Shown piece by piece: positions 48,501-51,500 of a stretch of DNA of 64,000 nt (position 1 is its first letter; each line of letters starts with the position of its first letter). The notes under the pieces were generated by a model. It saw only the letters and a program-made list of their open reading frames with translations. It was not told where the DNA came from and did no database searches. Where the stretch lies: NCBI GenBank assembly GCA_964430295.1, contig CAYSEV010000001.1:5699-69698 (forward strand). Reading direction: 5' to 3'. Origin of the DNA: an uncultured Gammaproteobacteria bacterium (GTDB lineage Bacteria > Patescibacteriota > Microgenomatia > UBA10105 > UBA927). The translations under genes were made by a program, and so were the position numbers.

Positions 48501-51500
48501 ACACAAATCCAAAATCTTCGACAGAAAGAGTTGCAGTAAAGTATCTAACAGGAGGCATAAAAGAAGCTCTTGCATATATGCAGGAATATGATTCTACAGT
48601 TCAATTATCTGATTTTGAGGAAGTAAATTGGGATGCATCGTTATTTCCTTTTATGGATAGAACAAATATTGCTCCTGATAGTGCCAAAATACGTTCAAAA
48701 CGTGGGGTTGAAATAGCAGAAGATATTGTAAAGAAACTCGAAAATCCTCCGATTCCGACGGCAATAGAATTTGCAAAGGATAAACTCATGGAATTGCAGC
48801 CGGAAAAGGCATCTTCAGTTGATAGGGCACTGAAAGATATTGCAGTTGATATGAATGCTGTAGATGGTGATCAGGCAGTAAAGCAAAATGCAATTTATCG
48901 GAAATTCTTTGGGGATCCAATTTGGCAAAATTATGGTTTGGCAAAAGGGTATTTTGAACTTCATGTGGCAGCTCCTAAAAAATATCCACTCGAACTGAAA
49001 GCAAACTCAGACGAGTTAACTGACGAAAGTCTGAAAGCCATTCATGAATGGTACGAATCTCAGCAAACACCTGATGAAGCCCATCAAGAAAGGCTTAACC
49101 GTGGTGGTGCGCTCAATATGGTGCAAAAAATAAAAACACTTCTTGCAAAACTTGGTATAAAACTTCCTCTCGCAGAAACAGATCCGATTCACAATTCCGT
49201 TGTTGTATTTTCCGATGATCAGTTCAAGCTACTATATCCGGATAAAGAAGACGCAAATATTTTGGCATTTTATGACGAACGTCTCGGATTATATGTCATA
49301 CGGTCTTCTGCAAACCTCACCTCAAATCAGAAAACTGAATTGGAAGAAATTAAATTCATGATAGCAGCCCACGAAGCCGGTCACGATATGGTTCGGTACA
49401 TCGGTCCATTTATGACGCATGAATGGAACGAGGGCATGGCAACGATGTTTATGATTGCACTTCTGGTAAAGCAAAATGGGATAAGTTGGACAGAGGCGAG
49501 GGCTAAAGTGGTTGCATTTGTATCTCCTGAATATGTGAAGCATCTGGAAATGGTGGAGCAGAGTCAGTTTGGTTCTGTTTTGATCGAACGGGCTTTTGAG
49601 AAAGGATTTACATCAGAAACAGTTGCAGATGTATTTCTGACATTCTATAAAAAACTCCCAAATAAAGAAAAAATGTTAGCAGGTGCCACCTACGCAGATT
49701 CCACAAATGCGTTTACCACTGCTGTTACAAGTACTGCACAACAATTTGGAATTATTACCCCTGACCAAAAGGTCGAACTGTGGCCAAAGCTTTATACATT
49801 TTTTGTTGACAATACTGTCGCAAAAGACTTGGATCCTGATACAGAAGTCAAATTTGATCCGACAACACGATCAATAGGGAAAAAACGGGTCACATTACCA
49901 ATCTTATCTTCAATTCCTTCGTCAGAATTATTTGGCACGATTGCAGGGTTAGATAGAAAAGGGTATGCGCTGCCAAAAGCAGATTTTGACTCATTGGATA
50001 TTGAAGCACCAGGATATGTCCTGGCTGTGCAAAATGATTCTGAAGCAAAAGAATATTTGGAAAGGCTGTATAGAACATATCCGGGCGCAGCAACAAAACC
50101 AATTTTTATTTTAGTGGCCACATCACGAAGGACAGCAGTATCAGGAAACGTATTGTTAACATCAAATGGAAGTGACTTGCTGCGGGCGTTGGATACAATA
50201 TTTCAGTCATCAGGGCCTCTTCACGAGCTTCGGACGCAAGCAAAAAAAACAGAAGTAACGGAAATACGTCCAGGCGTCTATCAATTTGGATCAGCACTAT
50301 TCTTTGTAGATAAAACAACGGGTGCTATGGCAATGGATTATGCTCCTGATACATCGTTGGCAAGTGTGCAAATAGATGGTCGTTCCCTTGCGCAAACAGC
50401 ATATGTGTTTAATAACACACAGATTGGAATATCTGGAGTGGCGTATACAGTGACCACTCAGGGAAACGCAGTCATACTTATAAAAGAGAACGGTGAGTCT
50501 GTACAATTACCGATTGCTGCAAAGTCTCTTCGTGAATTTCCCAAAAATCCGGGACAGTCACCATTACCTGCGCCGGTTCTTCCTGCCACACAAAAACAAG
50601 CCGCTCAACCAGTTGTATCTGTGAAACAACCTGAGGCAGTATTGAAAAATCCAGTGAGCACGTCAGACGAAGCAAATGTGCTCACTATGAAAACGAAAGA
50701 CGGCGTTATAAAGGTACGACGGGCCGAACTGGTAGATGGCAAGCTGATAGGGCATGGAGCCATTATCTATGATGATCCTGCAAAACAAATAGAATATGGA
50801 GCAACAGAAATGCCAATCCGCATCATGTTTAATACAACAGATGAAAACCTCTCAGGTCTTACACAAGAGACCTTAATGAGGGAATTAGAGCGAAGATATG
50901 TGTATGCAAACGATGTGCTTATCGCATGGCATGGATATTTAGAGACAGGAGAACAGTTTGAGCCTGCCGGGAATACGGTACTTGAACCATGGGATAAAAA
51001 TGGTAAGCGGCAGATGATGATAGCTCTGTCACATTCCGGAACCGAAGGCACATATGTAGAGAATCCTGACTACACGGCAAAAAATCTAATAGCGCAGGTG
51101 GAGGCTGCAGTTGAATTAGTATCTGAACAAATTAATTATACAGATGAAGATGTTCATATTACCTTAATGGGACATTCTTTGGGTGGTGCTATTGCATTCA
51201 AACTGGCGGAAAAGCATGGATTGGACACAACCGGGGTATGGGCAAAGGTGAAGTATATTATGCTTACCCCGTATGTTGGTGATCCGAATCAGCTGACGCT
51301 GTTAAATGAGTACTCACTCATTCCAGGGGTAAAATCGCTTGGAATTTTACGGATCATTAATAGCTGGTATTTGCCGTCTGCACTTCGTCGTGGACTTTTG
51401 GCATTTGCACATTTCGTCGGGTTTGATGAGGCACTCTTTAGCGCAATGATGAGTTTGGATTTGAAAAAGATGGATGACGCATCCGTTCGATTATCGAAAG

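Follow-up and report, generated by a model that had tools for sequence, protein, structure and literature searches.

Does the second of two giant genes in the genome of an uncultured bacterium encode a lipase, and if so, of which kind? The question is raised by a 64,000-nucleotide (nt) stretch of DNA, here called the window (GenBank assembly GCA_964430295.1, contig CAYSEV010000001.1, positions 5,699 to 69,698 of the forward strand), which is dominated by two open reading frames (ORFs) on the + strand, at 2582-45307 (14,241 amino acids (aa), gene 1) and at 45494-63478 (5,994 codons, gene 2). A preliminary description of the sequence placed a class-3 lipase (Lipase_3) domain at 50890-51330 within gene 2. 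The motif behind that assignment, HITLMGHSLGGAIAFKLA (51152-51205, + strand), is real, and it, the upstream strand-turn DVLIAWHGY and the downstream LTPYVGDPNQ (51263-51292) are all encoded in the frame of the gene 2 ORF. The interval was drawn too narrowly, given that the domain runs from 50705 to 51877 (+ strand, about 390 aa, ORF residues 1738-2128, with bounds taken from homology to the database protein P0002) and that the candidate catalytic Asp and His lie downstream of 51330. Residues 1738-2128 are likely to form a divergent alpha/beta-hydrolase-fold serine hydrolase domain, one that is probably catalytically competent. As far as sequence can indicate, the domain constitutes an orphan family within the alpha/beta-hydrolase superfamily and is not a member of Lipase_3.

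The gene 2 ORF opens with a TTG codon at 45494 (+ strand), from which the residues of gene 2 are numbered here. The true start is likely the ATG at 45542, which has GAGG 9 nt upstream and equals the start of P0001, the 5,978-aa database entry for the protein of gene 2 itself, such that P0001 numbering is lower by 16.

Comparison with family profiles points to the alpha/beta hydrolases. Twelve Pfam families match the GHSLGG elbow; all are named alpha/beta hydrolases, lipases or esterases, families of the clan AB_hydrolase, and no family of another kind matches. The top match is LIDHydrolase (PF10230), with 25.3-26.4 bits (E 7e-6) over 131 profile positions and a gathering score of 27 that is not reached. 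The second-best is Lipase_3 (PF01764), with 19.0-21.2 bits (E 3e-4) and a gathering score of 22, likewise not reached, and Abhydrolase_6 (PF12697) gives 20.8 bits, short of its gathering score of 26.3. Weaker sub-threshold matches include Hydrolase_4 (S33 aminopeptidase), DUF900, Thioesterase, Abhydrolase_1 and PETase, and NCBIfam provides weak matches to the same kind of families. Apart from the hydrolase domain, Pfam detects no domain in gene 2.

The local motifs fall in a meaningful order. The segment AWHGY (residues 1811-1815, 50924..50938, + strand), part of the strand-turn named above, lies at a predicted strand end and contains an HG-type motif, which when it follows a strand is a typical oxyanion-hole element of the alpha/beta-hydrolase fold. 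WHGYL is conserved in all three relatives that cover this position, and the WHGY turn is a probable oxyanion-hole turn. The nucleophile elbow GHSLGG (51170..51187, + strand) includes Ser1895 (codon 51176-51178), which is invariant in all four family members. GxSxG pentapeptides occur three times in gene 2 and nine times over both giant genes, but only the GHSLGG site has supporting context, and a profile hidden Markov model (HMM) of the family identified no paralogous hydrolase domain elsewhere in gene 1 or gene 2. Downstream are TPYVGD (strand 6 and its turn; 51266..51283, + strand), the segment ILRIINSWYLP (51344..51376, + strand) and an insert of about 80 residues (1962-2040, 51377..51613, + strand), a candidate lid or cap that is predicted with low confidence to be helical and is 49% hydrophobic.

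Relatives of the domain are few. Searched exhaustively with HMMER, 1.84 billion cluster representatives gave six matches at E <= 0.001, including P0001 itself, and three of these (P0002, P0004 and P0005) are relatives. P0002 (1,920 aa) fills a 6.8-kb JGI contig, is probably a fragment of another giant gene and is 45% identical over the whole domain (E 6e-92). The similarity is weak for P0004, a 777-aa protein from the metagenome-assembled genome GCA_041753515.1 at a locus with MreB, Maf, NDK and sortase genes, and for P0005, a 241-aa fragment. The remaining two matches, P0003 (3,206 aa) and P0006 (3,108 aa), are weak and patchy, gave empty BLASTP results against gene 2 and were treated as spurious. 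No relative of the domain was found in the genome contig collection, and a related-locus scan of the metagenome contig collection brought none. A degenerate DNA pattern for WHGYL-x2-G-x-QF-x-P had three matches among the metagenome contigs, none of which fit the family HMM. There was no match by tblastn of the domain in the plasmid and phage collections, nor by blastn against phages.

The comparison with P0002 is the most informative. Its residues 945-1338 align with residues 1738-2128 of gene 2, and nothing else can be aligned between the two proteins. Given that the hydrolase domain is all they have in common, it appears to be a discrete, mobile module under selection. Identity between the two is 62% in the core, from the HG turn to strand 6, and falls to 38% in the insert, 31% in the segment with the Asp and His, and 22% in the C-terminal tail. 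An architecture common to both proteins, in which an HExxH motif accompanies the hydrolase, was considered and rejected, as the alignable part is limited to the hydrolase domain. A recent horizontal origin of that domain was rejected too, on GC content: the domain has 42.6% GC and its module 41.5%.

The residues that are invariant in MAFFT alignments of the family are Ser1848, Gly1849, Thr1853, Tyr1860, Gln1868, Leu1875, Gly1893, Ser1895, Gly1897, Ala1905, Gly1914, Pro1926, Pro1961, Asp1995 and Arg2042. With Arg2042 as anchor, an acid is found at +9 in all four sequences, as Asp in the window (Asp2051, 51644..51646, + strand), P0002 and P0004 and as Glu in P0005, which additionally has an Asp at +8. 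A His is found at +35 (+36 in P0004), again in all four (His2077 in the window, 51722..51724, + strand; His1287 in P0002). Both are preceded by hydrophobic, strand-like stretches, MVVFY..D for Asp2051, which sits at the end of the MVVFY strand, and FFQVGY..H for His2077, a layout that would correspond to the classical arrangement with the acid on strand 7 and the His on strand 8. In the window domain, Ser and Asp are 156 residues apart and Asp and His 26. The sequence features that mark an alpha/beta hydrolase, a GxSxG elbow and a triad in the order nucleophile, acid, histidine, are present as judged by conservation. Ser1895-Asp2051-His2077 is therefore the probable catalytic triad. The preliminary description had left its lipase to be given up should the Asp and His partners be missing; with candidates found for both, it does not fall on that count.

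The same order of elements, with an HG turn, GxSxG, a long helical insert, a strand with Asp and a strand with His about 26 residues on, is found in the cap-containing hydrolases (Abhydrolase_6, Hydrolase_4, LIDHydrolase). For P0002, the sub-threshold scores are 24.5 bits for Abhydrolase_6, 20.6 bits for Lipase_3 and 19.5 bits for LIDHydrolase, and the Abhydrolase_6 alignment, at profile positions 49-215 of 217, extends from the elbow to the His and thereby takes in Ser1105, Asp1261 and His1287 of P0002. For the window domain, LIDHydrolase is on top (26.4 bits). All of these scores are nevertheless below gathering, hhalign of the four-sequence profile with E. coli BioH, a canonical alpha/beta hydrolase, aligns only 20 columns (probability 3.9%), and the core of the window domain is nearer to the class-3 lipases.

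The position of the domain within its protein suggests where it would act. Hydrophobic segments in gene 2, from a hydropathy scan, are confined to the first 667 residues, at 14-32 (weak), 51-73, about 504-549 (two) and about 613-667 (two), and a strongly basic, positively charged loop precedes segment 51-73. Because of this loop and the lack of hydrophobic segments after 667, residues 668 to the end, including the hydrolase domain, probably face outward. The pairing of all 18 cysteines of gene 2, with 18-36 residues between partners, is counted as further support for that topology.

In the mechanism proposed, Ser1895 of the elbow would be the nucleophile that attacks an ester carbonyl, His2077 would serve as general base and Asp2051 would orient His2077. 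The oxyanion would be stabilised by the WHGY turn and by the backbone of Leu1896, the residue after the Ser. The hydrophobic, mostly helical insert of about 80 residues, which extends from the ILRIIN strand to the Asp-bearing strand, may be a lid or a substrate-binding cap that gates or binds the substrate. The domain would be the C-terminal, outward-facing esterase part of one of about eight modules, in a protein held in the membrane by its N-terminal hydrophobic segments. The substrate would be an acyl ester, probably of a lipid (phospholipid or lysolipid), in the envelope of another cell or of the bacterium itself. A lipid acyl ester appears to be the most likely substrate class, and among the scenarios with an active enzyme the lipid reading is about an even bet. 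It is favored because the best matches are to LDAH-type enzymes, class-3 lipases and phospholipases A1 (PLA1s), and because the insert is hydrophobic.

The alternative that survives best is an active alpha/beta hydrolase with a non-lipid substrate, which we consider somewhat unlikely. The domain could then be an O-acetyl esterase acting on carbohydrate or peptidoglycan, an esterase of the cutinase or polyester type, or a thioesterase. It could also be a peptidase of the S33/S9 type, which might even cut the giant protein at its own module junctions. The best matches of P0002 in the Protein Data Bank (PDB) are cutinase and PET-hydrolase enzymes (E 0.002), and the sub-threshold Pfam matches to Hydrolase_4, Thioesterase and PETase are consistent with such activities, but these matches span only about 45 residues around the elbow and carry little information on the substrate. 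It is with lipid hydrolases that the alignments score best and run longest, over 131 positions for LIDHydrolase and about 100-155 residues for the PLA1s. Self-processing would fit a modular protein in which the V-[YF]-A of the junction motif resembles an A-x-A peptidase cleavage site, but no evidence of processing of the giant protein was found.

A bona fide class-3 lipase, that is, a Lipase_3 member with that family's own triad geometry and an effector role, as phospholipase or lipase, against target membranes, is improbable, even though the signature around the Ser is, by sequence, truly class-3-lipase-like. Class-3 lipases were represented in this comparison by the Thermomyces lanuginosus lipase (PDB 1DT3/1TIB) and the DAD1-type PLA1s CaPLA1 (7x0d) and AtDSEL (2yij). 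They have in common with the window domain the strand-[HR]G turn, an H-x-G motif (SHSG in the window), helix B, the G-H-S-L-G-[GA] elbow on strand 5, helix C and a strand 6 with P-x-V-G-[DN], so that the class-3 core signature is present. TPYVGD aligns with the class-3 sequences APRVGN and SPKVGD. The plant PLA1s 7x0d and 2yij are the best PDB matches (E 0.0065 with the single sequence; E 1.6e-5 for the four-member profile against 7x0d), with alignments that extend over about 100-155 residues. By hhalign, the four-sequence profile matches residues 120-180 of the Thermomyces lipase, comprising helix B, strand 5, Ser146, helix C and the strand 6 APRVGN, with a probability of 83.7% and an E of 8e-6. 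The reference sequences were checked, with the Thermomyces lipase identical to PDB 1DT3 and BioH corresponding to 4ETW/1M33, of which 4ETW differs only at the catalytic Ser82.

The resemblance ends at the catalytic acid. In CaPLA1, the triad is Ser221, Asp285 and His322, with the Asp in ILRIHNLLD (PMC9000616). In the window domain, ILRIINSWY lies at the CaPLA1 spacing, with the ILRI-N strand at the same distance from the Ser, and aligns with the class-3 strand that bears the catalytic Asp, such that Tyr1959, 64 residues after the Ser, takes the Asp position. When the invariant Pro1961 is instead paired with the Pro of the class-3 N-x-x-D-[IV]-V-P strand, Trp1958 takes it. The position is non-acidic in all four family members, and in the window domain it is followed by the insert of about 80 residues. 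The distance from the Asp position to the conserved His is 118 residues, compared with 37 in CaPLA1 and 57 in the Thermomyces lipase. The class-3 enzymes have Ser-Asp distances of 55-64 residues and Asp-His distances of 37-57, whereas those of the window domain are 156 and 26, with both residues on later strands. The search with Lipase_3 that the preliminary description proposed does give a match, but neither the window nor P0002 reaches the gathering score (the window falls short by less than one bit at its best, 21.2 against 22) and the alignment is limited to profile positions 27-78 of 140. Every hhalign and HMMER alignment stops short of the Asp. Since a defining feature of Lipase_3 was looked for and is lacking, the hydrolase domain is not filed as a member. 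What stands of the earlier assignment is an alpha/beta-hydrolase-type module whose local signature is closest to class 3; the family's Asp and its triad geometry are absent.

The divergent serine hydrolase favored here would instead combine a class-3-like N-terminal core with the arrangement of acid, His and insert that is typical of cap-containing hydrolases. In such a domain, the core of helix B, strand 5, Ser, helix C and strand 6 would have lost its class-3 acid site, with the acid supplied by a later strand, and the domain may still work like a lipase. A degenerate, catalytically inactive remnant, retained in the giant protein for structure or binding, is most improbable: the loss of the class-3 Asp may be read as decay, close relatives are absent and all family scores are sub-threshold, but GHSLGG, WHGY and the downstream acid and His are kept between proteins that otherwise share nothing detectable, and identity peaks (62%) around the active-site core.

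Several points weigh against an active, outward-facing alpha/beta hydrolase. The domain stays below the curated threshold of every Pfam and NCBIfam family. The family alignment is made up of only four sequences, of which two have an identity of about 22%, and its Asp and His columns were aligned by hand. The invariant Asp1995 (51476-51478, + strand), in the motif D-[STF]-A inside the helical insert, is an alternative acid; it could be the catalytic one or a substrate-binding residue. The hints to the substrate are weak and inconsistent, with PLA1- and LDAH-type enzymes for the window and cutinase- and PETase-type enzymes for P0002. The topology comes from a crude hydropathy scan, and P0004 has no obvious signal peptide. 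Structure prediction had been proposed earlier as a means to locate the triad; the AlphaFold2 models have a pLDDT of 35.7 (single sequence) and 37.9 (four-sequence alignment), and both are unusable. A Foldseek search of the PDB with the second, low-confidence model gave no match at E <= 0.001. The order of elements in the low-confidence model, which is strand, helix, strand, Ser, helix, strand, helices, strand, Asp, helix, His and helix, does agree with the alpha/beta-hydrolase fold, an eight-stranded alpha/beta/alpha sandwich. From this order and the sequence profiles we infer the fold, and likewise the convergence of the triad, rather than demonstrate them, because both models are unusable and the Foldseek search was not significant.

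Known systems provide some guidance as to function. An ABH domain in Vibrio MARTX toxins is a Ser-Asp-His PLA1 specific for PtdIns3P, within a modular toxin that exceeds 4,500 aa (PMC4640098). By analogy, it would be the closest functional counterpart of the hydrolase domain of gene 2, in that both are GxSxG Ser-Asp-His modules in multi-domain giants; the MARTX domain acts on another cell. No sequence relationship between the two was detected. A Pfam scan of the whole of gene 2 (E <= 1) found neither RTX repeats nor Peptidase_C80, the InsP6-activated, autoprocessing cysteine protease that releases MARTX effectors, and while MARTX toxins are type I secreted, the gene 2 protein is predicted to be anchored by its N-terminal hydrophobic segments.

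A second comparison is with the Archaeovorins of the Omnitrophota, giant proteins with scattered hydrolytic domains that are proposed to attack the envelopes of other cells (bioRxiv 10.1101/2023.11.21.568195). Like gene 2, they are very long ORFs with sparse, hard-to-detect enzyme domains. The bacteria that encode them are uncultivated and host-dependent. The Archaeovorins carry glycosyl hydrolase, peptidase, glycosyltransferase and NUDIX domains, whereas gene 2 has by Pfam only the alpha/beta hydrolase, and the words lipase and esterase are both absent from the main text of the Archaeovorin paper (bioRxiv 10.1101/2023.11.21.568195). The preliminary description had also drawn a parallel to phospholipase effectors of type VI and type VII secretion systems (T6SS and T7SS). 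The T6SS Tle and T7SS lipase effectors use GxSxG serine lipase chemistry against other cells. They are free-standing and linked to secretion-system genes, and the gene 2 domain is neither. No linkage to VgrG, PAAR, Hcp, EssC, WXG100 or immunity genes was found within the window, and the T6SS and T7SS lipase effector families have no Pfam match, so that the parallel finds no support at this locus.

Gene 2 appears from its sequence to be divided into about eight modules, each opened by a cysteine-pair motif. Eight of the Cys pairs fit the pattern C-x(8-11)-h-x-[QRT]-V-[YFH]-A-x(2-8)-C, where h is hydrophobic, a motif of some 20 residues that accounts for 16 of the 18 cysteines; shuffled sequence gives 0.025 matches. 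A pattern search places the copies, all on the + strand, at 45722-45790, 47582-47635, 51911-51970, 54269-54325, 56090-56161, 58019-58084, 60227-60292 and 62279-62350. The first is found directly after the N-terminal hydrophobic anchor. The second (C-x10-F-G-Q-V-Y-A-x3-C) opens a module of 1,425 residues (715-2139), of which the hydrolase domain is the C-terminal part. The third, CTPTISVQIFGRVYAAGENC, begins 11 residues after the end of the hydrolase domain and marks the module boundary. The same search finds three copies at the C-terminal end of gene 1, at residues 12003-12023, 13283-13301 and 13753-13772 (nt about 38588, 42428 and 43838). P0002 has, by eye, a looser copy outside the search pattern, with a longer gap before the second Cys. 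The motif may staple the chain by a disulfide, mark a module junction or be a site of processing, the last of these in line with the V-[YF]-A resemblance mentioned above.

Parts of the modules are related to one another. Residues 942-1054 and 4326-4438 form a stretch of 113 residues that is 33% identical between modules (E 3e-15), and identity is 63% between residues 4198-4262 and 4934-4998, in each case the 65 residues directly behind a Cys motif, the two motifs being consecutive. A repeated scaffold with variable payloads would fit such sub-domains common to several modules. The module at 54326-56089, between the third and fourth internal Cys motifs, has a GC content of 32.9% and a GC3 of 26%, with flanking modules at 41-43%. 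Its composition shifts at the Cys motifs, and it looks like a cassette exchanged at module junctions.

This module also contains HEMNH (55256-55270, + strand) and is homologous to residues 12829-12965 of gene 1, which contain HELWH. Four HExxH motifs occur across both giant genes, HEAGH (49370-49384, + strand) and HEMNH in gene 2 and those at residues 12851 and 14011 in gene 1 (+ strand), where a rough estimate from residue frequencies, not a computed value, would expect about 0.5. One pair of these falls in regions homologous between the two genes, and the HExxH regions may be cryptic zinc-metallopeptidase modules, but no sequence match in Pfam or PDB backs such a role. The rest of the hydrolase-bearing module, including the HEAGH region, gave nothing significant in Pfam or PDB sequence searches.

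The preliminary description had credited gene 1 with peptidoglycan hydrolase-like domains. The sole Pfam domain detected in its 14,241 aa is an FHA (phosphothreonine-binding) domain at residues 4316-4379 (15527-15718, + strand; E 1e-11), which is unexpected for a presumed surface protein. Pfam searches found no peptidoglycan-hydrolase domain there, with a cut-off of E <= 1 for residues 1-10,000 and of E <= 0.01 for the rest. The idea that the two giants form a complete envelope-breaching toolkit is unsupported, given that gene 1 lacks a Pfam peptidoglycan hydrolase and the only M23/LysM protein is encoded by a separate small gene at 574-1659. Hydrophobic segments in gene 1 are scattered, at residues 42, 1752, 3875, 5020, 6740, 10901 and 13056-13241, and its protein may cross the membrane repeatedly. 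Of the 69 cysteines of gene 1, 56 fall within residues 1-2000 (nt 2582-8600), most of them paired at a spacing of 2-20 residues, and this Cys-rich N-terminus has no Pfam family match. Syntenic N-terminal fragments of giant genes in the related loci L004 and L005 are likewise Cys-rich, with 71 Cys in 3,025 aa. No terminator-like site was found between gene 1 and gene 2.

Beyond the M23/LysM gene and the two giant genes, the window holds two tRNA-Ala genes (1789-1999, - strand), the end (a fragment) of a YfhO-like gene, and nothing more. The locus is chromosomal, in an uncultivated bacterium. In contigs with a close homologue of the M23 gene, this homologue is preceded by Rho and LytR_C genes and followed by a syntenic giant gene (10,881-11,585 aa). 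The M23/LysM gene is conserved in related contigs (loci L004-L007) at about 75% nucleotide identity, with a giant gene following there too, and the tRNA-Ala pair matches these contigs in inverted orientation. DNA similarity of the giant gene to related contigs, including that of the nearest relative genome (GCA_964349125.1), is gone within a few hundred bases, and so the giant gene appears to evolve very fast beside a conserved neighbor.

A more far-reaching reading, which is unlikely and is put forward tentatively, takes the domain as a new alpha/beta-hydrolase family in which a class-3-like core has had its acid moved to a later strand and a lid inserted, and which has become a mobile lipid-harvesting or lipid-breaching cassette. 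Such a cassette would circulate among giant, membrane-anchored surface proteins of uncultivated bacteria, built of interchangeable modules that are opened by the disulfide-type junction motif C-x(8-11)-h-x-x-V-[YF]-A-x(2-8)-C. Its targets would be the membrane lipids of a host or prey cell. The neighboring module that is about 10 points lower in GC, with edges exactly at Cys motifs, is cited for this reading.

That a large modular protein should contain a divergent alpha/beta-hydrolase domain is unsurprising in itself, as both the superfamily and the setting are already known. The serine hydrolase domain described here is the only feature with a recognizable biochemical function in the approximately 6,000 residues of gene 2, and therefore provides an experimentally tractable handle on the giant protein. 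It may also be a small example of the relocation of a catalytic acid within a lipase-like core. Should the domain prove to be a lipid esterase that faces outward, this would lend support to the view that the giant proteins found in uncultivated and possibly host-dependent bacteria include enzymes for attacking membranes or scavenging lipids.

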